This document shows positions 9,798 through 59,506 of a stretch of DNA of 64,000 nt, in pieces. The translations under genes and the position numbers were made by a program. The notes under the pieces were generated by a model that ran no database searches, had not been told where the DNA came from, and worked only from the letters and a program-made list of their open reading frames with translations. Within the stretch, counting starts at the first letter, position 1; each line of letters starts with the position of its first letter. Source of the stretch: a bacterium (GTDB lineage: Bacteria; Patescibacteriota; Patescibacteriia; UBA9934; GWF2-40-263); NCBI GenBank assembly GCA_021789915.1, contig JAJYIV010000002.1, positions 613 to 64,612 of the forward strand, given 5' to 3'.

Positions 9798-10885
9798 CGT
9801 CCGGCCAGGGCGCGCACGCGTTCCGCCAGGCGTTCCGCGGCGCCTCCCGGGAACAGCGCCCCGATCCGTTCGGACAGGCGGCGCTGTTTTTCTTTGTCTC
9901 CGACAAGCGCCGCGACCTGCGCGACGAGCGCGGTCCCGCCGCGCGCCTGCTCCACGGCCACCGCCGCCCCGCGGCGCAGGACGGCGCGCGCGTTTTCCTC
10001 CTGCGGCGAGCGCGGCAGCGGCACGAGCACGCACGGCTTGCGCAGCGCCGAGAGCTCCGCAAGCGTGCCCATGCCGGCGCGCGCGACCACGACGTCGGCA
10101 GCCGCCAAGGCGTCGGCCAAATCGCGGCCAAGGAGCAGCTCCACGGCGGCGTAGCCGGGCCCGGCCGCGCGCAGGCCCTCGGTGACTTTCCCGCGGCCCG
10201 TCACGTGGATGACGTCGGCGACGGCGCGCATGCGCTCCATCCCCGCCTCAAACGCCCGGTTGATCCACGCCGATCCGCCCCCGCCGCCCAGCACGAGCGC
10301 CACCGGACGCGCGCCGGAAAAGCCGTAGCGCGCGCGGGCGGCCGACGCATCGCCGCGCAGGATCGACGGCCGCACGGGCTGGCCGACGACGAGCGTTTTG
10401 TCCTTCGGGAACGCCGCGGCCGTCTCGGGCCACGCGACGGTGATGAGCGACGCGGCGCCCGCACACAGGCGGTTGGACAAGACCGGCCGCACGTCGGGCT
10501 GATGGATCCACGACGGAATCTTGAACCGGCGAGCCAGCAGGACGAACGGCACGCCGGTGAAGCCGCCGGCCGAGGCGACGACGTCCGGCCGTTCGCGGCG
10601 GAGCAGGCGCCACGCGGCGAACAGCGCCGCGGCGGCTTTGAACGGGAACACCAGCCACTCGGCGGACGCGTAGCGCGTCAGGCGCGCCACGGGCACGGCG
10701 TGGAACGGAATGCCCGCCTGCTCCACCAGCGCGCGCTCCGGCCCGCGCGCCGTTCCCGCCCACGCGAACGACGCGTCCGGATCGGACGCGCCATGCCTGT
10801 CGGCAGGCAGGCGCAACGCTTCGGCGACGGCGAGCAGCGGCGTGACGGGACCAAGCGTTCCTCCGCCGGCAAAGAGGATTTTCAT
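9794..10885 (-). CDS. murG: UDP-N-acetylglucosamine--N-acetylmuramyl-(pentapeptide) pyrophosphoryl-undecaprenol GlcNAc transferase
   Basis: Start MKILFAGGGTLGPV, the typical MurG N-terminus. dcw context. Confidence 0.9.
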   Translation of the reverse strand: MKILFAGGGTLGPVTPLLAVAEALRLPADRHGASDPDASFAWAGTARGPERALVEQAGIPFHAVPVARLTRYASAEWLVFPFKAAAALFAAWRLLRRERPDVVASAGGFTGVPFVLLARRFKIPSWIHQPDVRPVLSNRLCAGAASLITVAWPETAAAFPKDKTLVVGQPVRPSILRGDASAARARYGFSGARPVALVLGGGGGSAWINRAFEAGMERMRAVADVIHVTGRGKVTEGLRAAGPGYAAVELLLGRDLADALAAADVVVARAGMGTLAELSALRKPCVLVPLPRSPQEENARAVLRRGAAVAVEQARGGTALVAQVAALVGDKEKQRRLSERIGALFPGGAAERLAERVRALAGR

Positions 10886-10892
10886 AGCGGTA

Positions 10893-10917
10893 AGCCAACA
10901 GCCGTCAGCCGTCAGGG
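10893..10917. repeat. Heptamer array (GCCGTCA units)
   Basis: AGCCAACAGCCGTCAGCCGTCAGGG. Inverted relative to the array at 11322-11353. Confidence 0.85.
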
Positions 10918-11280
10918 ATTGGCCTTCGGCCTCGAAGAACACAAGACGTTCAACATACGCAAAACTTCATGCAAGAGACAGTCGGCTCGATCGTAATCGA
11001 GTGAACCGGTTCTCGGAAGCCGCCGAGCGATCGAGAGTTGCGTCTGAAGCTCGGCCGCCGAACCGTAAGCGATCGAGAGGAACCTGGCAAACTCATTGTC
11101 GTAGCCGCGCATCTTCCCTTCCGCGATATTCGATGGAATGGAAACCGCTGCTCGTCTCATTTGGCTTGTTAAACCGAATCGTTCGTCCGTCGGGAAAGAG
11201 TCGGTCAAGAGGTAAATCTCAAGGGAAAGATCCATGGCTTTTTGCCAGACAATGAGATCTTCGTATGGTCCTGTCGACAT
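10912..11280 (-). CDS. Four-helix-bundle protein (23S rRNA intervening-sequence protein family)
   Basis: YEDLIVWQKAMDL...IPSNIAEG...FLSIAYGSAAELQTQL is the family signature. The start could also be at 11292. Confidence 0.8.
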   Translation of the reverse strand: MSTGPYEDLIVWQKAMDLSLEIYLLTDSFPTDERFGLTSQMRRAAVSIPSNIAEGKMRGYDNEFARFLSIAYGSAAELQTQLSIARRLPRTGSLDYDRADCLLHEVLRMLNVLCSSRPKANP

Positions 11281-11321
11281 ATTGGTTCGCATGGTTGGCG
11301 TCAAATACGCGAGACGCTCGT

Positions 11322-11353
11322 GCCTGATGGCTGATGGCTGACGGCTGACGGCC
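11322..11353. repeat. Heptamer array (GCTGAYG units)
   Basis: GCCTGATGGCTGATGGCTGACGGCTGACGGCC. TGA recurs every 7 nt. Confidence 0.9.
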
Positions 11354-11360
11354 CGCCCCA

Positions 11361-12479
11361 TCACGCTATCTTCCGATGCTTCGAAATGTTCAGCACGACG
11401 CCGATCGCCGAGAGCAGCACCGCCAGCGACGTGCCGCCGTAGGAGACGAACGGCAGCGTAATGCCCGTCATCGGCATGATGGCGAGCATGGAACCGACGT
11501 TCACGAAGGCCTGCACGATGATCCACGCGGCGATGCCGACCACAACGTATTTCGAAAACGCGTCCGGCGCGCGCTTCGCCACCGTCAGCAGGCGCTGGAA
11601 CAGCAGGAGGAACAGGCCGATCAGGACCGCGCAGCCGATCAGGCCGAGCTCCTCGCCGATGACGGCGAAGATCGAGTCGCTGACGGCTTCCGGCAGGTAC
11701 TGGAATTTCTGGCGCGAATGGCCGTAGCCGAGCCCGAAGACGCCTCCGGAACCGATGGCCAAGAGCGCCTGGTTGACGTGATAGCCGATGCCCTGCGGAT
11801 CGAGCTGCGGGTTCAGGAACGTCATCAGGCGCGCGGCGCGGTACGGCGCGATCTTTATGAGCAGCGCCAGGCCGGAGGCGCCGGAAACCACCAGCCCCGC
11901 GATATACGGCAGCGGCGCGCCGGCGACGAAATACACCGCCAGGGCCTGCACGACGACGACGGACATCGTCCCGATGGCCGGTTGCGCGATCAGCAGGAGA
12001 AGGACGGCGCCGAGCGCGACGAGGAAGGGGACGAGGCCCGTGGAAAAACGGCGCATGCCGTCGGCGCCGCGGCGCTCGAGCCAGGCGGCGAGATAAAACA
12101 GAAAGGTCAGCTTGACGATTTCCGACGGCTGGAAGGAAAACCACGGACCGATGGAAATCCAGCTGTGCGCGCCGTTGATGTTGCCGGAGGAAATACCCGG
12201 GACGAAGACGAGCACGAGGAGTCCGAGCGAAGCCGCGAAGATCTTCATGGCGTGCCGGCGCCAGAACGTGTACGGCACGCGGCTGCACGCATACAGGCCG
12301 ATCAGCCCCGGCAGCAGGCCGAACACGAACTGGTGCTTGACGTAATAGGACGCGTCGCCGAACTGGTCGAGCCCCATGCCCGTGCCCGCCGACGCGAGCA
12401 TCAGCAATCCGAAAAGAAGGAGCGCCGCGACCAGGGCGAGCAGGACATAATCGACGCGATGAGGATCTTTCAGCGGCAT
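11361..12479 (-). CDS. ftsW: Peptidoglycan glycosyltransferase FtsW (SEDS family)
   Basis: Multi-TM SEDS-like sequence between mraY and murG. Start set at MPLKDPHRVDY because the upstream 19 codons are encoded by a heptamer array. Confidence 0.85.
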   Translation of the reverse strand: MPLKDPHRVDYVLLALVAALLLFGLLMLASAGTGMGLDQFGDASYYVKHQFVFGLLPGLIGLYACSRVPYTFWRRHAMKIFAASLGLLVLVFVPGISSGNINGAHSWISIGPWFSFQPSEIVKLTFLFYLAAWLERRGADGMRRFSTGLVPFLVALGAVLLLLIAQPAIGTMSVVVVQALAVYFVAGAPLPYIAGLVVSGASGLALLIKIAPYRAARLMTFLNPQLDPQGIGYHVNQALLAIGSGGVFGLGYGHSRQKFQYLPEAVSDSIFAVIGEELGLIGCAVLIGLFLLLFQRLLTVAKRAPDAFSKYVVVGIAAWIIVQAFVNVGSMLAIMPMTGITLPFVSYGGTSLAVLLSAIGVVLNISKHRKIA

Positions 12480-12510: not shown

Positions 12511-12534
12511 GCGTTGGCTAATGGCGAACGGCTC
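12511..12534. repeat. Degenerate heptamer array
   Basis: GCGTTGGCTAATGGCGAACGGCTC, between the mraY stop and the ftsW start. Confidence 0.6.
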
Positions 12535-12543: not shown

Positions 12544-13602
12544 TCAAATCAGCGCGTCCAGCAGGGCAAGGGCGACGCCCAGCGCCGCGGCGACATACGC
12601 GACGACCCACAGGCGCATGACGATTTGCGGCTCCGGCCAGCCGCGCGCTTCCAAATGATGGTGGAACGGCGCGGACAGGAAGAGCTTGCGCTTGAACAGG
12701 CGCCGCCAGGCAAGCTGGAGCAGCACGGACAGCGATTCCAGCACGAACACGAATCCGATCACCGGCAACAGCAGGGCGGCGTTCGTCAGCATGGCGATGA
12801 CGCCCAGCGTGATGCCGAGCGACATGGATCCCGTATCGCCCATGAAGAAACGCGCCGGGTGGATGTTGAACCACAGGAAGGCGAGCAGGCCGCCGATGAC
12901 GGCGGCGCAGAAGACGGCCAAATCGTATTTGCCCTGCGCGAACGCGATCAAGGCGTAGGCGGCATAGGCGGGAAACAGGACGCCGCCGGCCAGGCCGTCC
13001 AGGCCGTCCGTCTCATTGACGGAGAAGGCCGTCGCGATGAGGACGGCCATGAAGACCGGCACGTACCACCAGCCGATGTCGAAGGTGCCGAAGAACGGCA
13101 CGTGCAGGATGCGCCAATCGAGCTTGACCGTGAACCACCAGGCGCCGACGGCGGCGATGGCCGCGTAAATGAGCAGGCGGTGGCGGGCGCGCAATCCGCC
13201 GCCATGCGCGCCGATGCGGCGGATGTTGAAATAATCGTCCACCAGGCCGACCAGCGCCGAGGCGACGAGGGCGCCGAGCGGCAGCAGCGTCTGCGCGCGC
13301 GTCAGGAAAGACAGCCGCGCGAACGCCGAATCCGGCAGCAGCCAGCCGAGCAGCGCGCACAGGAGGATCACGGCGAGCACCGTTCCCCACACGAGCAGCC
13401 CGCCCATGGTGGGCGTGCCCGCCTTCCTGGCATGCAGCCTGGCATAGACCGGCGTCTCTTCCGCCAGACGGATCGATTTGCCCATCTTGTGCGATTCCAG
13501 CCAATGCAGCAGCGCCGGCGCCCACAGGAACGCCAGCAGGAACGTAAGCGAGGCGATGACCAGAAGGCGGATCAGCTGGAAAGACGCGAGAGGGAGAGTC
13601 AT
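12544..13602 (-). CDS. mraY: Phospho-N-acetylmuramoyl-pentapeptide transferase
   Basis: 352 aa. Conserved MraY motifs NxxNxTDGLDGL and HHHxE (APFHHHLE). Confidence 0.95.
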   Translation of the reverse strand: MTLPLASFQLIRLLVIASLTFLLAFLWAPALLHWLESHKMGKSIRLAEETPVYARLHARKAGTPTMGGLLVWGTVLAVILLCALLGWLLPDSAFARLSFLTRAQTLLPLGALVASALVGLVDDYFNIRRIGAHGGGLRARHRLLIYAAIAAVGAWWFTVKLDWRILHVPFFGTFDIGWWYVPVFMAVLIATAFSVNETDGLDGLAGGVLFPAYAAYALIAFAQGKYDLAVFCAAVIGGLLAFLWFNIHPARFFMGDTGSMSLGITLGVIAMLTNAALLLPVIGFVFVLESLSVLLQLAWRRLFKRKLFLSAPFHHHLEARGWPEPQIVMRLWVVAYVAAALGVALALLDALI

Positions 13603-14769: not shown

Positions 14770-14800
14770 GCTTTTAGCCATTAGCCTTTAGCCATGAGCC
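14770..14800. repeat. Heptamer array (TTAGCCA units)
   Basis: GCTTTTAGCCATTAGCCTTTAGCCATGAGCC. TAG at offsets 6, 13 and 20 on plus; TAA at 11, 18 and 25 on minus. Confidence 0.9.
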
Positions 14801-14885
14801 GGAAAAACCGACAGACTGGCAAGCGAATGCGGGCAGTGTAGAGGAAGGACGGCCGGACGTCAAGGCACAACCTTAGAGCACAACC

Positions 14886-16211
14886 TTAGAGCCTGTTCAT
14901 CCGGCAGACGAAGCTCTTCAAATACGCCGCCTCGGGGAAATACACGGACAACGGATGATCCGGGCTCTGACGCACGACCTCGAGCACCTGCAGGTCGACG
15001 CCCGCCTGCACCGACGCGCGGCGCAGCAGGAAGACCAAGTCCTCCTCCGGCAGGAAATGCGAACAGCTGGACGTGATGAAGATGCCGCCGTCCTTCACGA
15101 GCTTGAGCGCGGCGCGGTTCAGGAAATGATAGGCCTTCTTCCCTTCCTCGGCGTCCTTCATCGACTTGATGAGCGCCGGCGGATCCATAACGACGACGTC
15201 GAAAGCGCCGGCAACCCCCTCAGACTCCCCCTTGGCAAGGGGGAGATGGTGCGGGTTGGCGAGCCACTGGAAGACGTCCGCTTTCTCCGTCGCGCAGACC
15301 TCGTCGGACAAGCCGGCCGCCGCCGCCTGCGCGCGCAGCGATGCCAGCGCTTCCTCGGATCCGTCGACGTTCAGGACGGATTTCGCCCCGCCGGCGAAAG
15401 CGGCGAAGGACGTGGCACCGGTGTATGAAAAGAGATTCAGAACCGTCTTCCCTTGCGCGAGCGCGGCGACCCGGTCGCGCAGGTCCTTCTGGTCGAGGAA
15501 GAATCCCGTCTTTTGTCCGTGAAGAGGATCGGCGACGCAACGCCGGCCGTGCTCGAGAAATTCGACTTGACCCAATGCGCGTCCTCCCCTTTCCAAGGGG
15601 AGGCTGCCTGCTGGCCGCTTTTCAGCAGGCGGAGGTGTTGCCGGCGTGTGAATTCTGACGACCGCCTCCAGGTTCTCCTCGCGCCGGCTCGGCATGTCGC
15701 TGCGCTCGACGATCGCGCGCGGCTTGAACGTCTCTTCCAGCGCGGCGACGACGTCGTCACGCAGCGCGTCGAGACCGGCGGTTGCGATCTGGCATACGAG
15801 CACGTCGCCGTAGCGGTCGACGACCAAGCCCGGAATCCCGTCGGACTCGCCGAACACGCAGCGGTAGCCGGTCGTGAACTTCTCCCCCTTTTCAAGGGGG
15901 AGACTCTGCTCCAGAGGGGGTCGAGGGCCGTATCCCATCAAAACCCGTTTCTGGTGCGCATCCGCGATCTTGGCCGCCAGCCAGGCGCGGTCGATGACGG
16001 CCTCTTTGAACGCAAACACGCGCACGGCGATGGACGAGCTGGCGGAGTACGTCCCCGTGCCGATGATGCGCCCCTGGCGGTCCGCGACGTGCACGAGGGC
16101 GCCATGCTCGGGTTTCTTCTGACCGTCGGCCAGCGCGCGCGAAAAAATCCACGGATGGCGGAAGCCGACATTGGCCTCCTTCCCTTCTTTGAGCTTCAGG
16201 ACGGGGTACAT
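14886..16211 (-). CDS. Class I SAM-dependent rRNA methyltransferase (RlmI/RlmK-like, PUA plus MTase)
   Basis: Start MYPVLKLKEGKE..FRHPWIF. VLNLFSYTG and VVMDPP motifs. The long 706-aa ORF prefix is R-rich shadow sequence. Confidence 0.75.
   Translation of the reverse strand: MYPVLKLKEGKEANVGFRHPWIFSRALADGQKKPEHGALVHVADRQGRIIGTGTYSASSSIAVRVFAFKEAVIDRAWLAAKIADAHQKRVLMGYGPRPPLEQSLPLEKGEKFTTGYRCVFGESDGIPGLVVDRYGDVLVCQIATAGLDALRDDVVAALEETFKPRAIVERSDMPSRREENLEAVVRIHTPATPPPAEKRPAGSLPLERGGRALGQVEFLEHGRRCVADPLHGQKTGFFLDQKDLRDRVAALAQGKTVLNLFSYTGATSFAAFAGGAKSVLNVDGSEEALASLRAQAAAAGLSDEVCATEKADVFQWLANPHHLPLAKGESEGVAGAFDVVVMDPPALIKSMKDAEEGKKAYHFLNRAALKLVKDGGIFITSSCSHFLPEEDLVFLLRRASVQAGVDLQVLEVVRQSPDHPLSVYFPEAAYLKSFVCRMNRL
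15225..15245. repeat. GC-rich hairpin repeat, in-frame within a CDS
   Basis: CTCCCCCTTGGCAAGGGGGAG, translated as PLAKGE. Confidence 0.85.
15583..15636. repeat. GC-rich double-hairpin repeat, in-frame within a CDS
   Basis: CCTCCCCTTTCCAAGGGGAGGCTGCCTGCTGGCCGCTTTTCAGCAGGCGGAGG. About 50/55 identical to 63803-63857. Confidence 0.9.
15881..15925. repeat. GC-rich hairpin repeat, in-frame within a CDS
   Basis: TCTCCCCCTTTTCAAGGGGGAGA.., translated as SLPLEKGEKF. Confidence 0.85.
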
Positions 16212-19051: not shown

Positions 19052-19477
19052 TTACGACGCCAGCCCGAGCTTTGCCTCGACGACCTGCAAACGCCCCTCG
19101 AAGCGATCCATCCGCAAGGTCGGCGCGACCAGCTCCTGCTCGATCGTCAGCTGCAGCCGCGCCACCTGGTCGCTCACGGCAAGGACTTCCTGACGAACGT
19201 CTTGAAGATCCTCCTTTGTCGCGAAACGGTCGAAATCGTCTTTCGTGGCAAAGTTCTGCAGATCGTCTTTCGTGGCAAAGTTCTGCAGATCGTCTTTCGT
19301 GGCAAAGTTCTGCAGATCGTCTTTCGTGGCAAAACGGTCGAAATCGGCCTTCATTGCCACATTCTCCTTTACGAAACCGATGAATTCGTGCATTTCCGAC
19401 GTTAAACCTTCGACCTTCCGTTCAAGGCCATCGAACTTCTGCGCCAGCTGATTTGTCGTCAGGTGTTCCTCACTCAT
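19052..19477 (-). CDS. Coiled-coil protein with tandem FATKDDLQN repeats (DUF1640-like pattern)
   Basis: 141 aa. Five 9-aa repeats flanked by heptad-like helices. Confidence 0.7.
   Translation of the reverse strand: MSEEHLTTNQLAQKFDGLERKVEGLTSEMHEFIGFVKENVAMKADFDRFATKDDLQNFATKDDLQNFATKDDLQNFATKDDFDRFATKEDLQDVRQEVLAVSDQVARLQLTIEQELVAPTLRMDRFEGRLQVVEAKLGLAS
19208..19345. repeat. 27-bp tandem repeat (3 perfect and 2 degenerate units) inside a CDS
   Basis: ATCGTCTTTCGTGGCAAAGTTCTGCAG x3 at 19235-19315, with diverged flanking units. Confidence 0.9.
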
Positions 19478-21872: not shown

Positions 21873-21914
21873 GCGGTTAGCCATTAGCTGTTAGCCGTTA
21901 GCTTCTAACTGTTG
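21873..21914. repeat. Heptamer array (TTAGCYN units)
   Basis: GCGGTTAGCCATTAGCTGTTAGCCGTTAGCTTCTAACTGTTG, directly upstream of the pyrG start. Confidence 0.9.
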
Positions 21915-22484: not shown

Positions 22485-22652
22485 GACATCTGCGTGTTCG
22501 CCGGTCTTCCCGCCTTCTGTACATCCGAGAAGGACGGCATGGTCGTCACCCTCCCCTACCCGTTAGCGAACGGTCGGGAGAATTCTGTCAGCTTCCGACT
22601 CCGCGGGAAGACAACGGTCCTCGCCGCGCCGCACATCGTCTACGTCCACTGA
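22485..22652 (+). pseudogene. 3' fragment of a paralog of the 24824..25207 gene
   Basis: DICVFAGLPAFCTSEKDG..APHIVYVH aligns with KACVFGGLPAICETSKRG..APHIIYVP. No N-terminal part or start is present. Confidence 0.45.
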
Positions 22653-22706
22653 CGCACGCGCGTCCGCGCGGTTCGTGAGCCCGACGCTCACGGCCGCCGC
22701 GGGCGC
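22626..22706 (+). repeat. 81-bp direct repeat, copy A
   Basis: 78/81 identical to 25181-25261. Covers the last 8 codons, the stop and hairpins. Confidence 0.9.
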
Positions 22707-24252: not shown

Positions 24253-24411
24253 GAGACCTCTGAAAAACTGATGGATTTTCGTTGTCAGCCAAAGGCTGAT
24301 CAGCCTCTGGCTGAAATGGGCTGCCGAGCCCCGCGAACCCTACTGAAACGTAGGGAGAGCGGGGTCGGCGGGCGCCCATGAAACGAAAAGACGCCGTTTT
24401 GCAGAGGTCTC
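24253..24411. ncRNA. Candidate structured RNA or MITE-like nested-hairpin element, copy Y
   Basis: Perfect closing stem GAGACCTCTG/CAGAGGTCTC. Same hairpin order as copy X, with an extra ~45-nt insertion. Confidence 0.35.
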
Positions 24412-24469: not shown

Positions 24470-24545
24470 TGGTGGACCTGATGGGAGTCGAACCCACATC
24501 TTATGGTGCTAACTCAGGCGAGGTTACCGTTTCCTCCACAGGCCC
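24470..24545 (-). ncRNA. tRNA-like RNA (tRNA-Ala-like, degenerate anticodon stem)
   Basis: GGGCCTG-TG-GAGG-AAACGGTAA-CCTC..GTGGG-TTCGACT-CCCAT-CAGGTCC-ACCA. G3:U70 is present. The anticodon arm CCTGA/GTTAGCA/CCATA does not pair. Confidence 0.5.
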
Positions 24546-24823: not shown

Positions 24824-25207
24824 GTGATCCACAGAATCGTGATTGGAACAGTCGTCGCCGTCGGTGTTCTCTACCTCGCAAAGCCCATCGTCGGGTACTT
24901 CCACGAACAGGACGTGAAGGTACGCGCCGAGACCGACGTCGTGTGCGCGCACGTGACCCCGGCCAACTGGGGCGGCGAGGACAGCGCAACCTGCCGTAAG
25001 CTCGTGGCCAAGTTCATCAACATCGACCTCAAGCCGAAGGCCTGCGTCTTCGGCGGACTCCCGGCCATTTGCGAGACGTCGAAGAGGGGCACCGATGTCG
25101 CCGTGTTCCTCAAACGAAAAGACGGGCCGCTCCAGTACAGCCTGCTGCCCATCATGACCAAGGAACAGCTGGCGAACTCGGCGCCGCACATCATCTACGT
25201 CCCCTGA
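24824..25207 (+). CDS. Small membrane-anchored or secreted protein (127 aa)
   Basis: GTG start 7 nt after AAGGAG. N-terminal TM segment IVIGTVVAVGVLYL. Four Cys residues. Confidence 0.6.
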   Translation: MIHRIVIGTVVAVGVLYLAKPIVGYFHEQDVKVRAETDVVCAHVTPANWGGEDSATCRKLVAKFINIDLKPKACVFGGLPAICETSKRGTDVAVFLKRKDGPLQYSLLPIMTKEQLANSAPHIIYVP

Positions 25208-25261
25208 CGCACGCGCGTCCGCGCGGTTCGTGAGCCCAACGCTCACGGCCGCCGCGGGCGC
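25181..25261 (+). repeat. 81-bp direct repeat, copy B
   Basis: 78/81 identical to 22626-22706. Confidence 0.9.
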
Positions 25262-25604: not shown

Positions 25605-26861
25605 TTATTCATACCGCAGCGCCTCGACGGGATCCAGGCGCGCGGCGTTGCGCGCGGGCAGGACGCCGAACACGATGCCGATGGCGGCGGAGACGCCGAC
25701 GCCGAGCAGGATGGCGGAAGGCGGGACGGCGAAGGTCCATGCCAACTGGTTGGCGCGCGCCACGGCGGCCACGATCCACCCGAGCAGGGCGCCCCAGGCG
25801 ATGCCCAAAGAGCCGCCGAGCACGGTCAGCAGCACGGCTTCCAGCAGGAACTCGCGCAGGATGGCGCCGCGCGTGGCACCGACGGCCTTCTTGAGGCCGA
25901 TCTCCGCCGTCCGTTCCGTCACGACGACGTACATGATGTTCATGATGCCCACCCCGCCCACCAGCAGCGAGATGGCGGCGATCGCGATCAGCAGGGCCGT
26001 GATGCCACTGAAGATCACGTTGAACGTATCAAGCGCCTGCGTCTGCGTCTGCACCTCGAAATCGTCCTTCGCCGGATCCGTGATCCGGTGATTGCGCTCC
26101 AGCGTGCTCCGGATTTCCGCCGCCGTCGCGTCGCCGAGCGACGTGTCGCGCATCTGCACGATGCCGACCGAGAGATAGTCGATGCCGAGCATCTTCTTCT
26201 GCGCCGTGGCGAGCGGGATGTAGGCGGAGCTGTCCGCCGTTCCGCCGAACGCCAGCCCGCCCTGCGGGGCGTACACGCCGATCACCTGGAAATTCAGCGT
26301 GCCCAGACGCACCAGCCGGCCGACCGGCTCGTTCTGGCCGAAGAGATCCTTGGCCAGGTCGCTGCCGAGGATGATGACCTGCGCCGCGCCCGCATCCTCC
26401 GCGGGCGTGTAGAAACGCCCTTCCTGCAGCGTGTGCTGGTCGATGCGGAAGCGCTCGGCCCCGGCGCCGTAGTAGATGACGCTTTTCTGATGGTTGCCCT
26501 CGCTGGCCTCCGCCTGGCCCGTCACCATGCCGTAGGCGTCCACGACATTCGGCAAACGGCGGATATCGTCCAAATCGCGCGTCTTGAACGTGTTGATGAC
26601 GATGCCCGTCACGCCGCCGCCCACGCCGGCCGAGAACTTCTGCGCGCGGCTCTTCGTCGTCGGCGGCACGCGCGTGCTGACGAACAGCGTGTTGCTGCCC
26701 AGGGCGTTCACCTGCGACGTGACGAGGCTGCGGAAGCCCGCGCCCGCGGACAGCACCAAGATCACCGTCGAAATGCCGATGACGATGCCGAGGGTCGTCA
26801 AGACCGTCCGGACGGGATTGGACGCGAGGCCGCGGAGGGATTGGCGAAAGGCGGGGAACAT
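25605..26861 (-). CDS. ABC transporter permease (MacB/FtsX-like)
   Basis: 418 aa. N-terminal TM segment, a large extracytoplasmic domain and a C-terminal FtsX-type 3-TM bundle. Confidence 0.85.
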   Translation of the reverse strand: MFPAFRQSLRGLASNPVRTVLTTLGIVIGISTVILVLSAGAGFRSLVTSQVNALGSNTLFVSTRVPPTTKSRAQKFSAGVGGGVTGIVINTFKTRDLDDIRRLPNVVDAYGMVTGQAEASEGNHQKSVIYYGAGAERFRIDQHTLQEGRFYTPAEDAGAAQVIILGSDLAKDLFGQNEPVGRLVRLGTLNFQVIGVYAPQGGLAFGGTADSSAYIPLATAQKKMLGIDYLSVGIVQMRDTSLGDATAAEIRSTLERNHRITDPAKDDFEVQTQTQALDTFNVIFSGITALLIAIAAISLLVGGVGIMNIMYVVVTERTAEIGLKKAVGATRGAILREFLLEAVLLTVLGGSLGIAWGALLGWIVAAVARANQLAWTFAVPPSAILLGVGVSAAIGIVFGVLPARNAARLDPVEALRYE

Positions 26862-26865
26862 AGAT

Positions 26866-26896
26866 GGCTGTAGGCTTTTAGCTTTTAGCTGTTAGC
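26866..26896. repeat. Heptamer array, left arm of an imperfect inverted pair
   Basis: GGCTGTAGGCTTTTAGCTTTTAGCTGTTAGC. Confidence 0.85.
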
Positions 26897-26913
26897 CGAA
26901 ATAGTTCCCATCC

Positions 26914-26945
26914 GGCCAGTAGCCAATGGCTAATGGCCAAAAGCC
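26914..26945. repeat. Heptamer array, right arm of an imperfect inverted pair
   Basis: GGCCAGTAGCCAATGGCTAATGGCCAAAAGCC. Confidence 0.85.
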
Positions 26946-26949
26946 TCGA

Positions 26950-28212
26950 TCATTCATATCTCAGCGCCTCGATCGGATCCAGCCGCGCGGCCTTGAGCGC
27001 CGGATACAATCCGAAGCCGACGCCGGTCAGGACGGAGATGACCAGCGCCAGGACGACGGAAAACGGCGAGACGACATACGCCCACTCATAGCCCAGCGCG
27101 TGCATGACGAGAGCGGCTGCGAGCGCGATCGCGGCCCCGAGCGCGACGCCGACGAGCCCGCCTGCGCCCGTGAGCGCCGCGGCCTCCAGCAGGAATTGCC
27201 GTGCGATGGCGCCGTTGGTGGCGCCGACGGCCTTGCGCAGCCCGATCTCGCGCGTGCGCTCGGCCACCGTCACCAGCATGATGTTCAGGATGCCGACGCC
27301 GCCGACCACCAGCGAGATGGCCGCCATCGCGGCAAGGAACAGGCTGAGAGCCGACGTGATGGATGACAGGATGTTCATGATGTCGGCCTGGCTGCGCACC
27401 GTGAAATCCTCCTGGTCCTGCGTCCGCACGTGATGGCGTTCGTCCATCACCCGCGTGACGTCCGCGATGGCCTGCGGCACGTGCGCGGCGGCGTCGACCT
27501 TCAGGTCGATGAGCTGCAGATGGCGGATGCCGAGCAGCTGCTGCTGGCCGATCGGCAGCGGGAGGAAGACCTGGTCGTCCATGTTCACCACGGCGATGTT
27601 GCCGCGCGGATTGATCACGCCGACGACGCGCAGCGGCACGCCGCCGGCTTGCGCCTGCGCCGCGTTGCGCACCTTGATGACCTGCCCCACCGGATCCACG
27701 CCGCGGCTGCCGAACAATTCGTCGGCCACGGTGGAGCCGAGCACGGCGACGTTGGCGCCTGCGTCCGCCTGGGCGACGCTGAAATACGTCCCTTCGCGCA
27801 TGGTGAACGTCAGCACGTCCGGATGATAGCCGTCCGTGCCGAAAAAGTTGGTGTCGATGCTCTGATTGCCCCACGTCACCGTGGCCGTCCCGAGCACCAT
27901 CGCATCCGCCGCCTTGATGTGAGGCACGCGGCGCAAGGCGTCCGCGTCCGCGTTCGTCAGCGTCGTGACGACGATGCCGAAGAGCTGGACGGGCGGGCCC
28001 TTCTCGTTGCTCTTGCCCGGCTGCACGCTGAGCAAGTCGCTCCCAAGCTTGGTCACCTGCCCCAGGATGAGAGACTGCGCGCCGGCGCCCAATGCCAAAA
28101 TCACGATGACGCCGGAGACGCCGATCACGATGCCGAGCATGGTCAGCAAGGACCGCCCCTTGCGCGCCAACAGGGTGCGGGAGACGAGGCCGAACGTGTC
28201 GCGGACGTTCAT
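26950..28212 (-). CDS. ABC transporter permease (MacB/FtsX-like), second copy
   Basis: 420 aa with the same architecture as 25605..26861. Confidence 0.85.
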   Translation of the reverse strand: MNVRDTFGLVSRTLLARKGRSLLTMLGIVIGVSGVIVILALGAGAQSLILGQVTKLGSDLLSVQPGKSNEKGPPVQLFGIVVTTLTNADADALRRVPHIKAADAMVLGTATVTWGNQSIDTNFFGTDGYHPDVLTFTMREGTYFSVAQADAGANVAVLGSTVADELFGSRGVDPVGQVIKVRNAAQAQAGGVPLRVVGVINPRGNIAVVNMDDQVFLPLPIGQQQLLGIRHLQLIDLKVDAAAHVPQAIADVTRVMDERHHVRTQDQEDFTVRSQADIMNILSSITSALSLFLAAMAAISLVVGGVGILNIMLVTVAERTREIGLRKAVGATNGAIARQFLLEAAALTGAGGLVGVALGAAIALAAALVMHALGYEWAYVVSPFSVVLALVISVLTGVGFGLYPALKAARLDPIEALRYE

Positions 28213-40470: not shown

Positions 40471-41595
40471 TCAGGAGACGAGGGGACGCGCGATCGCGGC
40501 GGCGAGCGCTTCCATCCCCTGCCCCGTCGCCGCGGACACCGGCGCCACGGCCGCGAAGGCCCCCGCGTCGAACGCCGGGCCAAGGCGTCGCCGCCAATCG
40601 GCGCCGGCGGCGTCGATCTTGTTCACCGCGAGCACGCGCGGCGTTTCCGCGGCGCCCAAGCGCTTCAGGATCTCGTCCACCACGCGCAGATGGTCCGCCG
40701 CATGCGCGTCGGCGGCATCCACGACCTGCACGAGCACGTCGGCGTCCGCCGCCTCCGAGAGCGTCGATGCGAACGCGTTCAAGAGCTCGGGCGGCAGATT
40801 TTGGATGAAGCCGATCGTGTCGGAGACGAGCACCTGGCGCGGCGGCTCGTTCTCTTTCCTTGCGACGTACAGCGAGCCAACGCGCGTGTCGAGCGTGGCG
40901 AAGAGCTCGTCGGCCGCATACTCGCGCCGGCGCGTGAGCCGGTTCAGCAGCGACGTCTTGCCGGCGTTCGTGTAGCCGACGAGCGCCGCCGTGGGCAGGC
41001 CCTGCCGCCGACGCCGTTCCTGGCGCGCGCGACGCATCGTCTGATACCGCGCGAGCTTCTCCCCGACCGCTTCGGCGCGCTCGCGCAGGTGCCGGCGCAT
41101 GATCTCCGTGTTCGTCTCGCCCTTGCCGCGCGTACCGGTGCCGCCGCCCTGGCGCGACAATTCCAGGCCCATGCCGTAGATGCGCGGGCCCATGTGCCGG
41201 ATGCCGGCCAACTCGATCTCCAGCCGCGCCTCCGTCGTGCGCGCGTGCTTGGCGAAGATCTTCAAGATGAGATCGAGGCGGTCCCACACCTGGAGGCCGG
41301 CCGGGCGCAGCGCTTCCGAGAGAAGATAGACTTGCCGCGGCTTGAGCCGGTCGTTGATGACCACGAGCGCCGCCCCGAGCCGCTTCCCTTCCTCGGCCAG
41401 CTGCTCGATCTTTCCCGTACCGAGGAATGTCGCCGGATGCGGCGCCGCGCGGCGCTGATGCGTCTTCACGACGACGATGCCGCCGTACGTGCGCACGAGT
41501 TCTTCCAATTCCTGCAGCCGATCCAAACTCTCCGCCTTCGTGAGCCGCGGCGGGATCAGATCGACGAGAATGGTTTTGAGGAGACGGTCGGCCAT
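40471..41595 (-). CDS. hflX: GTPase HflX
   Basis: HflX N-domain followed by G1 GYTNAGKTSL and G3 DTIGF. Confidence 0.9.
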   Translation of the reverse strand: MADRLLKTILVDLIPPRLTKAESLDRLQELEELVRTYGGIVVVKTHQRRAAPHPATFLGTGKIEQLAEEGKRLGAALVVINDRLKPRQVYLLSEALRPAGLQVWDRLDLILKIFAKHARTTEARLEIELAGIRHMGPRIYGMGLELSRQGGGTGTRGKGETNTEIMRRHLRERAEAVGEKLARYQTMRRARQERRRRQGLPTAALVGYTNAGKTSLLNRLTRRREYAADELFATLDTRVGSLYVARKENEPPRQVLVSDTIGFIQNLPPELLNAFASTLSEAADADVLVQVVDAADAHAADHLRVVDEILKRLGAAETPRVLAVNKIDAAGADWRRRLGPAFDAGAFAAVAPVSAATGQGMEALAAAIARPLVS

Positions 41596-45108: not shown

Positions 45109-46440
45109 ATGTCCACGGGGATGCGCCGCGGCCTGGCTTGGGCGTTTGTCATCCTGTTCCTCATCAGCGCCCCGGTTGTCGTCCTGTACACGGCCGGGTA
45201 CCGGCTCAACCTCCCGTCCGGCCGCCTCGTGCAGACCGGCATCCTTTCCATCAGCAGCGTCCCGTCCGGCGCGCGGGTGCTGGTGGACGGCGTTTTGTCC
45301 GGCACGACGTCGGCGCTCGTCAAGAATCTGCTGCCGGGATCCCACCGCGTCGAGCTGCGCAAGGACGGCTATCTGCCGTGGAGCAAGACGCTGCCGATCG
45401 AAAGCCAGCGGACGACGTTCGTGCAGAACGCCGTCCTGAACGCGGACAAGCCGGCCGTGCTGCAACGCGCGGCTTCGGCCGGCGCGGGCGCGTTCGCCCG
45501 CGCGACGGGAAACGCCGCGTACGTGCGGCAGGGCAAGGTCTGGAATGAGATCTGGTCCTATCAGCCGCAGGACGGCGGCGACCGTTTGGTCGCGCGGCGG
45601 CCGTCTTCCGACGGCATGCCGGCGCTCGCCTGGTCGCCGGACGGCACCACGCTGGCGATTTCAACGGGTTCCGGCCCGTCGCGTTCCGTCTCGCTGGTCA
45701 ACGTGGACGACGGACGGCGCTTCGACCTTCCCGCCAAATCGGGAACGCCCGCCGGCTGGGATGCGGGCACGGGCGCGGCGTATCTTCTTTCGGCGAAGGA
45801 CGGGATCTCGAGCGCGGACGTGGACGGCGACGTGGTTTCCATCGCGCCGTCGCCCGCCCTGGCGCTCGAAACGTCCGCGGACGGCTCCTATGCCATCGTG
45901 GCGGCGGAAGGCGAGCGCCTTGCCGTCGTCCATCGGCAGGCGAACGGCGTTTCGCTGGTCGGCTATGTCCCGATGGGGAATTACCGGTTCGCGCCGGCGC
46001 CGGACGGCTGGCTTGCGCTGGACGACGCCGACCGCCAATCGCTCATCGTCCTGGACGGAAACGGATCGGGGGCCGCCGTGCTGACGGCGAATGCGTCGCA
46101 ATGGCAGTGGGAGCCGAAGGGACGCCGCCTGCTGTACACCGACGGACATGAGTTGCACCTGTTCGATCCGCTCGGCGGCGGAGACGAGACCTTGACCCGC
46201 GTCTCGGATCCCATCACCGGCATCGCCTGGCGCGTCGGGCTTGACGCCGCCTTGTACGCGCAAGGGGCGCAGCTCGTTTCGATCGAGTTCGACCGGCGCG
46301 ACGGGCGCGAAACGGCGACGCTGGCGCAAGGCAACGGCTTCCAAAGCCTGTGGACGGACCCGTCGGGAAAGACGGCATTCACGTTCGGAAGCTTGGACGG
46401 CGGAAAGACGAGCGGGCTGATCAGCCGGGGGCTGGAGTGA
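45109..46440 (+). CDS. PEGA-domain protein with a beta-propeller-like C-terminal region
   Basis: TM segment followed by a PEGA-like motif (SVPSGARVLVDG..GSHRVELRKDGYLPW). Confidence 0.65.
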   Translation: MSTGMRRGLAWAFVILFLISAPVVVLYTAGYRLNLPSGRLVQTGILSISSVPSGARVLVDGVLSGTTSALVKNLLPGSHRVELRKDGYLPWSKTLPIESQRTTFVQNAVLNADKPAVLQRAASAGAGAFARATGNAAYVRQGKVWNEIWSYQPQDGGDRLVARRPSSDGMPALAWSPDGTTLAISTGSGPSRSVSLVNVDDGRRFDLPAKSGTPAGWDAGTGAAYLLSAKDGISSADVDGDVVSIAPSPALALETSADGSYAIVAAEGERLAVVHRQANGVSLVGYVPMGNYRFAPAPDGWLALDDADRQSLIVLDGNGSGAAVLTANASQWQWEPKGRRLLYTDGHELHLFDPLGGGDETLTRVSDPITGIAWRVGLDAALYAQGAQLVSIEFDRRDGRETATLAQGNGFQSLWTDPSGKTAFTFGSLDGGKTSGLISRGLE

Positions 46441-46590
46441 TGGAGTCAGAAGTCAGAAGTCAGAAGTCAGGGCGGAGGAGTAGCCAGGAGCATGTAGTTC
46501 GTAGTCAGGGCGAGACACGCGGGCTAAAGCCTAACACCTGCCGAATGCCGAATGCCGCCGGCTGAAACCTAGAACCTGAAACCTAAAGCC
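46441..46590. repeat. Mosaic of 7-nt-periodic repeats
   Basis: AAGTCAG x4, CTAAAGC/CTAACAC, CCGAATG x2, then TGAAACC-TAGAACC-TGAAACC-TAAAGCC. Confidence 0.85.
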
Positions 46591-46601
46591 CAACGCCTCA
46601 C

Positions 46602-46643
46602 AAAAAATCGCCCCGCCTCCTCGTCGTGAGGAAGCGGGGCTTT
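46602..46643. terminator. Terminator hairpin between convergent genes
   Basis: GCCCCGCCTCCTC..GAGGAAGCGGGGC, flanked by A6 and TTT. Confidence 0.6.
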
Positions 46644-51349: not shown

Positions 51350-53398
51350 TCACCGCACGCGCGTCCGGAACAGCTCGTCCGGCCACTTGGCGAAATACTT
51401 GAGGAAGCTGATCGAGTGCGCGCGGGCCATCCGGTTGACGAGCAGCGTGCGCAGCAGGCTGCCCTGGCGCACCGATCCCTTGCCGTAGGCATGCTGCAGC
51501 GCCGCATCGGCCACATAGTACACCGGCCGGTGCATCGCCCACGAGCGGCGGCACAGATCCACGTCCTCGAAGTACATCCAGAAGCGCTCGTCGAAGCCGC
51601 CCAGCGCGCGCCAGTGCTCCATCGGCAGGAACAGCGCGGAGCCCTGCGCCCAATCCACCATGCGCGTTTCGCCTGGCGGCGTGTCGCGCATCAGGAAACG
51701 ATGGAGGTAGCGGCGGCCGAAGGCCGTGCCGCCGAGCGTCGTGCGCTGGACGAGCGGCAGCGGCCACGACGGGAAGCGGCGCACGGTTTCCTGCGCCTGT
51801 CCGTCGGGATAGACGATCTTGGGCGCGGCGATGCCGGCGCGCGGATGCGCGCGCATGAACGCGACGAGCTTGGCGAAGAGCCGATCGTCGACGAGTTCCG
51901 TATCCGGGTTCAGCACGAAGAGGAACTCGGCGTCGAGCTCGGCGGCGCCGCGGTTCACGGAGCTGCCGTAGCCGGCGTCCCAGTTGCGCTGGACGACCAC
52001 GCCGTCGGGAATCGCGTCCCACAGCACGGCCGCGGCATCGTACGCCGTCGACGCGTTGTCCACGACGACGACGCCGACGCGCAGGCCGGACGCCTTGCGC
52101 GCGCGATCGAGCGAACGCAGACACGCGGCGCTCAAATCGTCGTGCGAGACGATGACGACGGCGATGTCGAGGTAAGTAGCTGGCGGCTGGGGGCTGGCGG
52201 CTGGGGGAGAAAACGGGAGCGGGGCCTGCGCGCGCGCCGCGTCCGCGGGCGACGGCACGGCGCGAACCGCGCCGAACCGCGCGGCGTACGCGCGCCGCTT
52301 CGTGATCAGCTCATGCCGATGCTCCCACGTTTCCCGCCACGCCTCGGTGCACACGCGCGGCCGCATGACGAGCCAATATGCCGCCTTCGCCGCCTCATAC
52401 GGAAGCACGGCCCATGCGCGCGCCGGCGCCGAACGGAACTCCCCCTGGCTCCCTCTTGAAAAGAGGGGGAAGTGCATCGCCAGCGTCCAAAGATGGTTGC
52501 GGTACGAGTGGAACACCGGCCGCCAGGTTTGCGCGGTGCGGCCGATTCCCCCCCTGCCTGCCTCGCATACCCCCCGCCTGCCAAAATGCGGCCAGCAGGC
52601 AGCCCCCCTTGGCAGGGGGGCAATCCTGGCCGTGCCGAAGCTGCGGCGATGGTACGCGACGGCGTCGGACACGACGCCGGAGGCGAAGCCCGCGCGGCGC
52701 AATCTCCACGCAAGCTCGACGTCTTCCTTGTACGAGACGAACGACGGGTCAAACAAATTCCCGTCCAACGACGCCGCCTCTACCGCCGCACGGCGATACA
52801 TCGGCAGGCAGCCCGACACCCCGAACGCCTCGTGCACGCCCTCATGCAGCTGCGCCGTCGAAACACGCTCCCCTGCTCCGATGTCGCGCACGGCGCCCGT
52901 TGCCGACATCGCCAAGCCGAAACTGTCGATCACGTCCGTGCGCCCGCCGGACCCCTCTGCCCAGCTGAGCTGGGCCGTCCCCCCTTGGCAGGGGGGGACG
53001 ACACACGCCGCCCGATCGAAATCCCATCGATACACGCGCCCGGCGACGGACCCGAGCCGCGCGTCCGCGTCCAGCGCGGCGACGAGCCGCTCGAGATACG
53101 CCGGTTCCAGGATCGCATCGTCGTTGTGCAGCATCACGTACGCCGCCTGATGCTTGGAGAACAGCAGGTTATGCGCGCCGGCAAAGTCGACGTTGCGCGG
53201 CCCGACGTCCACGTACACGGCGCGGTCGCCGAGTTCCCGCGCGAACGCGCGCACCGCCTCGGCCTGCACGGGATCCGACGCATTGTCCGTCACGTACAGC
53301 GTCCAATCGCGGAACGTCTGCGCGCGCAGGGACGCCAAAATATGCGGCAGGTACCGCGCGCCGTCGTAGCAGGAAAGTTGGATGGCGAGTTTGGACAT
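51350..53398 (-). CDS. Fused double GT2 glycosyltransferase (682 aa)
   Basis: Two GT2 modules (LSCYDGARYL..HNDDA and VIVSHDD..LNPDT..YFEDVDLC). Carries two repeat inserts. Confidence 0.8.
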   Translation of the reverse strand: MSKLAIQLSCYDGARYLPHILASLRAQTFRDWTLYVTDNASDPVQAEAVRAFARELGDRAVYVDVGPRNVDFAGAHNLLFSKHQAAYVMLHNDDAILEPAYLERLVAALDADARLGSVAGRVYRWDFDRAACVVPPCQGGTAQLSWAEGSGGRTDVIDSFGLAMSATGAVRDIGAGERVSTAQLHEGVHEAFGVSGCLPMYRRAAVEAASLDGNLFDPSFVSYKEDVELAWRLRRAGFASGVVSDAVAYHRRSFGTARIAPLPRGAACWPHFGRRGVCEAGRGGIGRTAQTWRPVFHSYRNHLWTLAMHFPLFSRGSQGEFRSAPARAWAVLPYEAAKAAYWLVMRPRVCTEAWRETWEHRHELITKRRAYAARFGAVRAVPSPADAARAQAPLPFSPPAASPQPPATYLDIAVVIVSHDDLSAACLRSLDRARKASGLRVGVVVVDNASTAYDAAAVLWDAIPDGVVVQRNWDAGYGSSVNRGAAELDAEFLFVLNPDTELVDDRLFAKLVAFMRAHPRAGIAAPKIVYPDGQAQETVRRFPSWPLPLVQRTTLGGTAFGRRYLHRFLMRDTPPGETRMVDWAQGSALFLPMEHWRALGGFDERFWMYFEDVDLCRRSWAMHRPVYYVADAALQHAYGKGSVRQGSLLRTLLVNRMARAHSISFLKYFAKWPDELFRTRVR
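52548..52621. repeat. GC-rich double-hairpin repeat (G6 subfamily), in-frame within a CDS
   Basis: ..CCCCCCGCCTGCCAAAATGCGGCCAGCAGGCAGCCCCCCTTGGCAGGGGGG. Reverse complement of the 60812 copy. Confidence 0.9.
52959..52999. repeat. GC-rich hairpins, in-frame within a CDS
   Basis: GCCCAGCTGAGCTGGGC plus GTCCCCCCTTGGCAGGGGGGGAC, translated as PPCQGGTAQLSWA. Confidence 0.85.
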
Positions 53399-53411
53399 AG
53401 ATCGCTGGCAA

Positions 53412-53530
53412 CCCCTCCGCCTGCCGATGGTCGGCCAGCAGGCAGCCTCCCCTTGGGGGGGCGCGTTTTTCCGCGTCCCCTCTTTTCCAAGAGCCTGTCC
53501 TGAGCGAGCGGAGCGAGTCGAAGGAAGGGG
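53412..53530. repeat. Composite repeat filling an intergenic gap
   Basis: Double-hairpin copy (53412-53461) plus a CCTGTCCTGAGCGAGCGGAGCGAGTCGAAGGAAGGGG module. Confidence 0.85.
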
Positions 53531-55757: not shown

Positions 55758-55761
55758 AGAA

Positions 55762-55788
55762 GTTCGCCGTTAGCCGTTAGCCGTTAGG
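55762..55788. repeat. Heptamer array (GCCGTTA units)
   Basis: GTTCGCCGTTAGCCGTTAGCCGTTAGG. Confidence 0.9.
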
Positions 55789-55810
55789 AAAAAGGACGCG
55801 CAGCCCCCCA

Positions 55811-55835
55811 AAGCCAAAGGCTAATGGCTAATGGC
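55811..55835. repeat. Heptamer array (GGCTAAT units), inverted partner
   Basis: AAGCCAAAGGCTAATGGCTAATGGC. Confidence 0.9.
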
Positions 55836-55840
55836 TTTTT

Positions 55841-59460: not shown

Positions 59461-59465
59461 GGGAA

Positions 59466-59495
59466 GCGTTTAGCCATTAGCCGTTAGCCTTTAGC
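59466..59495. repeat. Heptamer array (TTAGCCN units)
   Basis: GCGTTTAGCCATTAGCCGTTAGCCTTTAGC. Confidence 0.9.
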
Positions 59496-59506
59496 ATGTG
59501 TCTCTC

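Follow-up and report, generated by a model that had tools for sequence, protein, structure and literature searches.

We analysed a 64,000-nt stretch of a patescibacterial genome (assembly GCA_021789915.1, contig JAJYIV010000002.1, positions 613 to 64,612; hereafter the window), in which short tandem arrays of the heptamer GGCTRAY, or of its reverse complement RTYAGCC, lie between genes. The window is metagenome-assembled sequence, present also under NCBI GCA_027328745.1, ENA ERZ27233565 and Logan SRR13170411, and has a GC content of 65.5%. By Pfam and NCBIfam, the neighbours of the arrays are murG, ftsW, mraY, the genes for L27 (rpmA) and L9 (rplI), pyrG, two permeases of the MacB/FtsX type, an RmlC-like gene and a GDP-mannose-dehydratase-like gene. 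Between ftsW and murG, two arrays enclose a small gene of the S23p family ("23S rRNA intervening-sequence protein"). We list this gene and the arrays here in window coordinates, with array units as read on the mRNA. ORF stands for open reading frame and UTR for untranslated region.

10886-10917, minus strand: start-proximal arm of the S23p element, mRNA CCC TGACGGC TGACGGC TGTTGGC TTACCGC T, reaching the murG ATG (10885-10883)
10912-11292, minus strand: S23p gene (PF05635/TIGR02436, four-helix bundle), its stop TGA (10912-10914) inside the 3' arm
11322-11353, minus strand: stop-proximal arm of the S23p element, mRNA like GGCC(GTCAGCC)2(ATCAGCC)2, starting 8 nt past the ftsW stop (11361-11363)
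12511-12534, minus strand: solo stop-proximal arm, degenerate, past the mraY stop (12544-12546) and ahead of the ftsW start (12479), no significant fold alone
14770-14800, minus strand: solo start-proximal array, GGCTCAT GGCTAAA GGCTAAT GGCTAAA, in the rpmA 5' UTR, 8 nt from the ATG (14761), stops in three frames
21873-21914, minus strand: solo start-proximal array, about five units (AGCTAAC/GGCTAAC/AGCTAAT and so on), 8 nt from the pyrG ATG (21864)
26866-26896, minus strand: 3' arm of an ORF-less hairpin, GCTAACA GCTAAAA GCTAAAA GCCTACA GCC, 4 nt from the ATG (26861) of the second permease gene
26897-26913, minus strand: loop of the same hairpin, dissimilar to the loops of the other copies
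26914-26945, minus strand: 5' arm of the same hairpin, starting 4 nt past the stop (26950-26952) of the upstream MacB/FtsX-type permease gene
55762-55788, minus strand: 3' arm of an ORF-less hairpin, CCTAACG GCTAACG GCTAACG GCGAAC, 4 nt from the ATG (55757) of the RmlC-like gene
55811-55835, minus strand: 5' arm of the same hairpin, 5 nt past the stop (55841-55843) of the GDP-mannose-dehydratase-like gene
59466-59495, minus strand: 3' arm of an ORF-less hairpin, GCTAAAG GCTAACG GCTAATG GCTAAAC GC, 5 nt from the ATG (59460) of a 279-aa ORF
59507-59530, minus strand: 5' arm of the same hairpin, GTCAGCC and ATTAGCC units mixed, holding the stop (59523-59525, TAG on the mRNA) of the upstream 628-aa ORF

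A first-pass annotation, made from the letters alone, had reported heptamer arrays here, and Tandem Repeats Finder together with a lag-7 scan recovered period-7 arrays at every coordinate that it gave. Allowing at most one mismatch, we counted 18 matches to GGCTRAYGGCTRAY in the window, where dinucleotide-preserving shuffles give an expectation of 0.17, and none of 100 shuffles reached 18. The two-unit GGCTRAY matches group into 11 arrays at eight loci, all in non-coding gaps adjoining minus-strand genes. This location is partly forced, because a unit with stop codons on both strands cannot occur within an ORF, and 64 kb holds too few divergent or convergent gaps to serve as a comparison set for operon specificity. 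The annotation placed the arrays in the gaps of minus-strand operons. That is right as far as the non-coding gaps go, but the rpmA array belongs to a 5' UTR, 3' of a promoter-like site (TTGACG-17-TACACT, 14863-14835) conserved among relatives. A terminator-like hairpin (21949-21929), which follows rplI, lies 5' of the pyrG array. The arrays are found in gaps that separate protein-coding genes or in a 5' UTR, with none in a 23S or 16S rRNA helix, and an Rfam scan of the window gave tRNAs only, with no family matching at the arrays. Among four assemblies of this population, 99.8-100% identical, the five arrays covered do not differ in copy number, which is a small sample; on this ground we ruled out a phase-variable contingency locus.

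The orientation of the arrays follows a strict rule. Arrays that come after a stop codon have RTYAGCC as their mRNA sequence, and those ahead of a start codon have GGCTRAY. The rule covers the window's four pairs and, in related loci (given by our handles, L and a number), two pairs in L165, one locus (L029) and the S23p elements of the Candidate Phyla Radiation (CPR); the stop-proximal array is always of the TTAGCC type and the start-proximal array of the GGCTAA type. Six start-proximal arrays end 4-8 nt 5' of an ATG, and their linkers are pyrimidine-rich without a Shine-Dalgarno (SD) motif, which is rare across window genes generally. The first-pass annotation had put every array directly upstream of a start. 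This is correct for these six, but the arrays at 11322 and 12511 directly follow the stops of ftsW and mraY and lie about 30 nt before the next start. It had also noted an over-long ftsW ORF at 12511, and this ORF (to 12536) does enter the array at 12511-12534, whereas the called start is at 12479. It had further noted that an array supplies the real stop codon at 59523, as it does for ORF 59523-61409.

The three imperfect inverted pairs that had been proposed as stems do fold in prediction. We obtained -37.5 kcal/mol for 26855-26955 (z -3.6 against shuffles), -40.1 kcal/mol for 55750-55845 (z -4.4) and -34.3 kcal/mol for 59455-59535 (z -5.0). Each is a predicted bulged stem of 22-30 bp, made of 6-bp helices with a 1x1 mismatch at every seventh nucleotide, a length that would suit RNase III substrates. 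The loops (26897-26913, 55789-55810 and 59496-59506) are mutually unrelated, so the heptamer unit is the only sequence common to the ORF-less copies. The solo arrays have no significant predicted structure. At the S23p element, the arms 11322-11353 and 10886-10917 pair in the minimum free energy (MFE) structure of 10880-11365 on the minus strand (486 nt), with 40 long-range pairs and z -3.3.

The S23p element reaches from the ftsW stop codon, where the stem begins, to the murG start codon, where it ends, and both arms carry the TGA variant of the unit (GTCAGCC and GGCTGAC). The gene in its loop matches PF05635 (E 1.5e-37) and TIGR02436 (E 2e-35), and its closest solved structure is PDB 2gsc (Xanthomonas XCC0516, E 3e-25). 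It is uncalled in the public gene calls for these contigs. Its true start is likely the second ATG, at 11280, because the ortholog in L236 starts at the equivalent position. The nearest named homologues of MurG and of S23p are all Patescibacteria/CPR (Uhr-, Giovannoni-, Ryan- and Nomurabacteria).

The closest syntenic relatives are L233 (GC 65%, MurG 72% identical) and L234, which have the gene order RlmI-L27-NifU-X-mraY-ftsW-murG as in the window. Their ftsW|murG junction is TGA-T-ATG or overlapping, and we found no heptamer arrays anywhere in their RlmI-to-murG cluster. The rpmA array is missing from UTRs that are otherwise alignable. Many more distant relatives have TAATATG at ftsW|murG. 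Given these bare junctions, we take the 472 nt that separate TGA from ATG in the window to be an insertion at a junction that was once coupled. The lack of arrays in these closest relatives, whose gene order is that of the window, points to gained insertions and away from a conserved regulatory device of the host. Absence from close relatives had been named in the first-pass annotation as one observation that would speak against its ideas, and this part of that pattern is what we see.

Other relatives have filled junctions. L236 and L237 share the order ftsW|S23p|murG, with S23p 78% identical and the MurG N-terminus 78% identical. The arms of L236 read TTAGCY/RGCTAA where the window has GTCAGCC/GGCTGAC, a compensatory change from U-A to C-G in both arms, and they also pair in the MFE structure. 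The much more distant L165 (GC 42%) has an ORF-less hairpin of the GGCTAAY family at ftsW|murG and another after a NifU-like gene. At the same junction, L134 and L135 keep the layout of stop, arm, loop, arm and start with other units: period 8 in L134 (GTCGTTGA and TCAGCGAC, z -6.8) and period 9 in L135 (GTGGATAAG and CTTATCCAC, z -10.9). In the elements of relatives the upstream stop codon is often the first repeat unit. Taken together, these comparisons make the arrays, most likely, the arms (paired or orphaned) of stem-loop insertions that lie between a stop and a start codon, and they show that such elements are gained or lost among relatives. They behave as gained, possibly selfish DNA and not as a conserved host regulator.

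S23p genes with inverted heptamer arms interrupt six different gene pairs. Those other than ftsW|murG are:

L215: pyrophosphatase|S23p|ferredoxin
L207, L219, L228: X|S23p|prgI, in a type-IV-secretion-like cluster
L225: rpiB|S23p|rpe
L230: ABC ATPase|S23p|permease
L029: upstream gene|S23p|precorrin-methylase-like gene

The layout is the same in these elements. The 5' arm begins at the stop of the gene ahead of it. The 3' arm, complementary to the first, shares sequence with the final codons and the stop of S23p and ends 0-5 nt before the next ATG. The arm units vary yet are always complementary (TAGGCNN/GCCTARN, TAGCTT/AGCTAA, CTTGTAG/CTACAAG, GTAAGCC/GGCTTAC), and at X|S23p|prgI the arms co-vary between elements (TAGCT/AGCTA against TAGGC/GCCTA). 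In L225, L228 and L230, with 20-kb flanks, arrays of at least three family units occur solely beside the S23p gene. The arms pair in the global MFE structure of nine of nine S23p elements, with 14-40 long-range pairs and at least 26 in seven; 332 control windows had a mean of 7 such pairs and a 95th percentile of 22.

We then have an independent sample from IMG/VR, with 40 S23p loci, of which 34 are distinct and 31 usable. Absolute energies from duplex folding look inflated, and we used matched-versus-control comparisons only. Pairing of the upstream flank was stronger with its own downstream flank than with flanks from other loci (Mann-Whitney p 1e-8) or with about 19 control segments from the same locus (Wilcoxon p 2e-6), and it exceeded all controls in 15 of the 31 loci. 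Tandem periodicity at lag 7 was present in 12 upstream and 6 downstream flanks and at lag 8 in 2 and 1; none was found at lags 4-6 or 9-11 in the flanks, or in coding controls. Where S23p genes occur on sequenced plasmids, the host is in most cases a heterocystous cyanobacterium (Nostoc 14, Calothrix 4), and we inspected four of these loci. In both N. punctiforme and Anabaena sp. 90 the plasmid S23p gene has inverted heptamer arms; in the latter (L281, plasmid pANA02, 43892-45033) it separates cas6 from cas4 within a CRISPR-Cas locus and has (CAGGTGA)n and (TGTCACC)n arrays on its two sides. In Calothrix PCC 7716 an AGCTAAA array is present at the 3' end. The family itself is large, with 7908 matches at E <= 1e-10 among 8000 candidates scored. 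In a jackhmmer search of about 200 fetched loci, S23p turned up in the window (and its three same-population copies, L204-L206), L029 and L053 alone. A pan-bacterial scan for (GGCTRAY)3 gave at least 120 stretches, with Acidobacteriota, Gemmatimonadota, Poribacteria, Planctomycetota, cyanobacteria, Saprospiraceae and Streptomyces among the taxa, but the analysis of ORF proximity for these matches was too noisy to interpret.

On balance we lean towards reading the GGCTRAY/RTYAGCC arrays as the terminal arms of a family of palindromic insertion elements, placed between stop and start codons and resembling the intervening sequences (IVSs) of 23S rRNA. A complete element would have (RTYAGCC)n as its 5' arm and (GGCTRAY)n as its 3' arm, with a loop between them. 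The ftsW|murG copy would be the one that retains an S23p gene in its loop, beside three hairpins without an ORF and three arrays that would be orphan arms. In the transcript, the arms would pair to a stem of 22-30 bp, bringing the upstream stop and the downstream start to the base of the stem. RNase III might then cut the stem, as in the IVSs of Coxiella and Leptospira, and leave a short unstructured leader on the downstream cistron; or a ribosome terminating on the upstream cistron might melt the stem and expose the downstream AUG held in the other strand. We propose that, with the stem cut or melted, an operon would be able to bear an insertion at a junction that was formerly overlapping and translationally coupled. 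The start-proximal arm may also halt stray ribosomes in every frame just 5' of the AUG. The first-pass annotation had offered insulators, RNase III-type processing stems and protein-binding sites as possible roles. RNase III-type stems appear to fit best of the three, given long bulged stems of which one encloses an S23p gene as in the Coxiella IVS. Proteins may also bind at the arrays.

Several points weigh against this reading. An S23p ORF is carried at one of the eight array loci. The ORF-less copies share only the heptamer unit and their loops are unrelated, so that we infer their descent from S23p cassettes, and S23p landing in pre-existing hairpins is equally compatible with the data. 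Stem formation, cleavage and the effect on translation in this organism are likewise things that we infer. End-to-end pairing is not rare in MFE predictions, since at least 14 such pairs occur in 20% of control windows. There are S23p genes without complementary arms, in L053 (Armatimonadota, groES|S23p|groEL, with no clear inverted heptamer arms), L238 and L243, and on pGamma of Nostoc PCC 7120 the heptamers on both sides of S23p are not complementary. We found neither a transposase nor a target-site duplication, and no near-identical copy in a different context; mobility is thus unsupported. The element is in the window and L236 and not in L233, a pattern that we could not place on a resolved tree (MurG N-terminal identities 78, 75 and 80%). 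The signature motif of an RNase III gene was not found in the 64 kb, which is uninformative.

We weighed four other explanations. The arrays could be translational operators or enhancers of the host, the start-proximal array serving as an mRNA platform for S1, a Csp-like or another protein, or as an unstructured A/U-rich standby site, that replaces the SD sequence in a post-transcriptional regulon. We think this unlikely. It would suit the six sense-orientation arrays that end 4-8 nt before an ATG with no intervening SD, in a window whose genes mostly lack one, as well as the lack of structure in the solo sense arrays. The layout also matches that of TAACTGA repeats, which are mostly forward, most commonly end 1 nt before the start, lack an SD and occur at ribosomal-protein genes (PMC4679880). 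However, the closest relatives have the same genes and the conserved promoter-like site of rpmA without the arrays, unrelated units and periods of 8 or 9 occupy the equivalent position in other relatives, and the downstream genes (murG, rpmA, pyrG, a permease, an RmlC-like gene) have no common function. The antisense arms after stop codons and the S23p cargo are also left unexplained. Neutral slippage, by which 7-nt units are favoured and stop-bearing units tolerated at gene ends while inverted pairs and the adjacency to S23p are incidental, strikes us as distinctly unlikely. The window does hold other period-7 units (AGTCAGA x4, TGCCGAA and AAACCTR in 46441-46600, and GCAGCTG x4 within an ORF), the placing of the stop codon in the first unit would fit, and heptamer copy number is strain-variable in Coxiella (PMC4990558). 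But one unit family occupies eight loci within 64 kb, and slippage events independent of one another would not all arrive at the same heptamer out of 16384. The arrays keep a strict orientation with respect to transcription, the arms of orthologous elements co-vary and stay complementary, the association with S23p is statistically supported, and array copy number is constant in the four population assemblies whereas that of a 27-bp repeat varies.

All-frame stop codons had been the first-pass annotation's headline, and five of the six start-proximal arrays (14770, 21873, 26866, 55762 and 59466) do have stops in all three mRNA frames, with one arm supplying a real stop codon. The array at 10893 covers two frames, though, and the stop-proximal arms, which a read-through ribosome would meet first, cover 0-2 frames, with none at 11322. 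The three-frame stops of the start-proximal arms follow automatically from a CTAA/TTAG core repeated at period 7. They are not general, because other unit families in relatives lack them: the equivalent arms CTACAAG, ACTCAGCG and CTTATCCAC are stop-free, and a period-9 arm keeps its stop in one frame. We therefore retain the all-frame property of the start-proximal arms from that proposal, and consider it very improbable that the arrays are selected insulators that end out-of-frame or read-through ribosomes between cistrons. Intrinsic terminators or attenuators between genes have only the slightest chance of being the answer. The paired loci are stable predicted hairpins, but their stems are A/U-rich and periodically mismatched with no U tract after them, and they lie within gene pairs whose functions are coupled, for example ftsW|murG and the genes of the two permease subunits. 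A scan that found canonical terminators elsewhere (46640-46610, 21949-21929) flagged no array on the coding (minus) strand. Along with the terminator role, promoter and terminator scans led us to reject a promoter role. Dispersed palindromes of the kind found in miniature inverted-repeat transposable elements (MITEs) or repetitive extragenic palindromes (REPs) were ruled out as well, as the copies are not alignable over their full length and have unrelated loops.

Reading the arrays as arms of insertion elements gives a testable model that links them to S23p: cassettes with heptamer arms that form hairpins, are inserted between a stop and a start codon and are made harmless in the RNA. The very large S23p/PF05635 family is of unknown function, and intergenic heptamer arrays have gone unexplained since the reports of TAACTGA repeats and of short tandemly repeated repetitive (STRR) sequences. 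The model would account for the way in which streamlined CPR operons, whose cistrons overlap and are coupled, could accommodate insertions, as at ftsW|murG, rpiB|rpe and an ABC ATPase with its permease. For annotation, the arrays explain over-long ORF calls and missed small genes such as S23p. More broadly, inverted tandem-heptamer arrays might be the defining termini of widespread S23p cassettes, in rRNA helices and at the stop/start junctions of essential operons (in CPR, cyanobacteria and others), with orphan intergenic arrays (GGCTRAY, perhaps STRR- and TAACTGA-type) as relics and a pentameric S23p acting on the arms. We offer this wider idea tentatively and regard it as possible but doubtful. 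Candidate reasons for the period of 7 are a preference of slippage, stems that tolerate shifts in register, and recognition by a pentameric S23p. In a literature search with incomplete coverage, whose one relevant return on S23p and repeats was the Coxiella IVS paper, we found nothing that links operon S23p genes to inverted heptamer arrays, and as far as that search showed, an IVS-like type of element in mRNAs or operons has not been previously described.

The window has other repeats. GCAGCTG x4.1, with units 100% identical, lies at 60136-60169 inside the 628-aa ORF 59523-61409 (minus strand) and is a stop-free coding heptamer array. Period-7 arrays of AGTCAGA x4, TGCCGAA x2.7 and AAACCTR x3 lie in 46441-46600, 3' of the stop of the plus-strand gene 45109-46440, and are followed by a canonical bidirectional terminator at 46610-46640; the AGTCAGR unit of this region is also the unit in the 5' arm of the S23p element on pNPUN02 of Nostoc punctiforme. 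In a relative's contig (L191), a TGCTACG/TGTTACG heptamer array of more than 35 units begins at 8806. A perfect 27-bp tandem repeat (x3.7, 19235-19333) inside ORF 19052-19477 (minus strand) varies in copy number between same-population assemblies, which results in gene calls of 141 or 123 aa and is the sole length polymorphism seen among the assemblies. A 13-nt direct repeat (GCACAACCTTAGA x2.2, 14865-14892) overlaps the RlmI stop codon just 5' of the promoter-like -35 of rpmA, and an 81-nt direct repeat, 96% identical, is present at 22626-22706 and 25181-25261, 2.5 kb apart.

There is also a second, unrelated repeat family, a GC-rich double palindrome of 45-70 nt (CCCCTTTCCAAGGGGAGG + CTGCCTGCTGGCC...GGCAGGCGG) that occurs in both orientations. 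Its copies are:

1505-1564: double-palindrome copy
15580-15646: double-palindrome copy
52561-52630: double-palindrome copy
53403-53464: double-palindrome copy
60803-60875: double-palindrome copy
62611-62653: double-palindrome copy
63794-63866: double-palindrome copy

The copy at 15580-15646 is an in-frame insertion in the RlmI-like gene, where residues 189-211 face a 20-aa gap in the L233 ortholog, and the RlmI-like protein has two more short insertions with the LPLxKGE motif of this copy. These double palindromes resemble the in-frame palindromic elements of Rickettsia. One of the same-population contigs, L204 (DAHWTR010000018.1), follows the window down to 9417, and its 11484-11640 is then 97% identical to window 24253-24409; the join reflects either a rearrangement or a chimera that assembly produced at a repeat. 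Two tRNA calls by ARAGORN are doubtful: a tRNA-Ala(AGC) at 24470-24545 has weak Rfam support (39.8 bits), and a 94-nt tRNA-Ala(GGC) at 40523-40616 has none and lies inside a predicted ORF.

Among known systems, REP elements and the bacterial interspersed mosaic elements (BIMEs) that contain them, enterobacterial repetitive intergenic consensus (ERIC) sequences and the Correia elements of Neisseria are intergenic imperfect palindromes transcribed within operons, and Correia elements are RNase III substrates. Unlike these, which have full-length similarity among copies, the copies in the window share a 7-nt unit only and have tandem arrays as arms. The STRR heptamer repeats of cyanobacteria were reportedly described by Mazel in 1990. 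Like the window arrays, STRR and heptamer-rich long repeats are short intergenic tandem heptamers in co-transcribed regions, with several unit families per genome, and the STRR-rich lineages (Nostoc, Calothrix, Anabaena) are those with the most plasmid-borne S23p genes, which are heptamer-flanked. The canonical units differ, however, and a hairpin or cargo architecture is undescribed for STRR; the four plasmid loci that we inspected suggest a link between STRR and S23p.

The closest match in architecture is the IVS in helix 45 of the 23S rRNA of Coxiella burnetii. It has an S23p ORF, a 28-bp stem formed by terminal inverted repeats, and 2-3 tandem GACAGAT heptamers before the ORF in strain-variable number, and RNase III cleaves it inside the stem at the first repeat (PMC4990558). 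S23p-type IVSs also occur in Leptospira and Brucella, are regarded as selfish or horizontally acquired, and include ORF-less versions (PMC4990558). The window element likewise has an S23p ORF in its loop, a long terminal stem and tandem heptamers in the arm. It differs in its host molecule, which is an mRNA at the stop/start junction of an operon and not a 23S rRNA helix, and in its arms, which are longer (3-6 units), lie on both sides, and have a 3' arm that overlaps the S23p stop and abuts the next start. Excision by RNase III has been demonstrated for the Coxiella IVS and would be expected of the window elements by analogy.

The closest match in position is the TAACTGA heptamer, found immediately 5' of start codons without an SD in Beggiatoaceae, cyanobacteria and Bacteroidetes (MacGregor 2015, PMC4679880). 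With these two precedents, the first-pass annotation's statement that there is no described equivalent does not stand. Heptamers are given as the commonest long simple sequence repeats in bacteria in the summary of Mrazek 2007 within PMC4679880. TAACTGA repeats and the window arrays are both sets of 2-6 tandem, stop-containing heptamers that read forward a few nucleotides before a start codon without an SD, at genes that include those of ribosomal proteins, and the TAACTGA repeats have, as the window arrays do, a patchy phylogenetic distribution and an unknown function. The window arrays are distinguished by the unit GGCTRAY and by their link to S23p, which is unreported for TAACTGA. They also differ in that half of the window loci are inverted pairs, whereas in BOGUAY 169 of the 170 TAACTGA sets are direct and one is inverted (PMC4679880).

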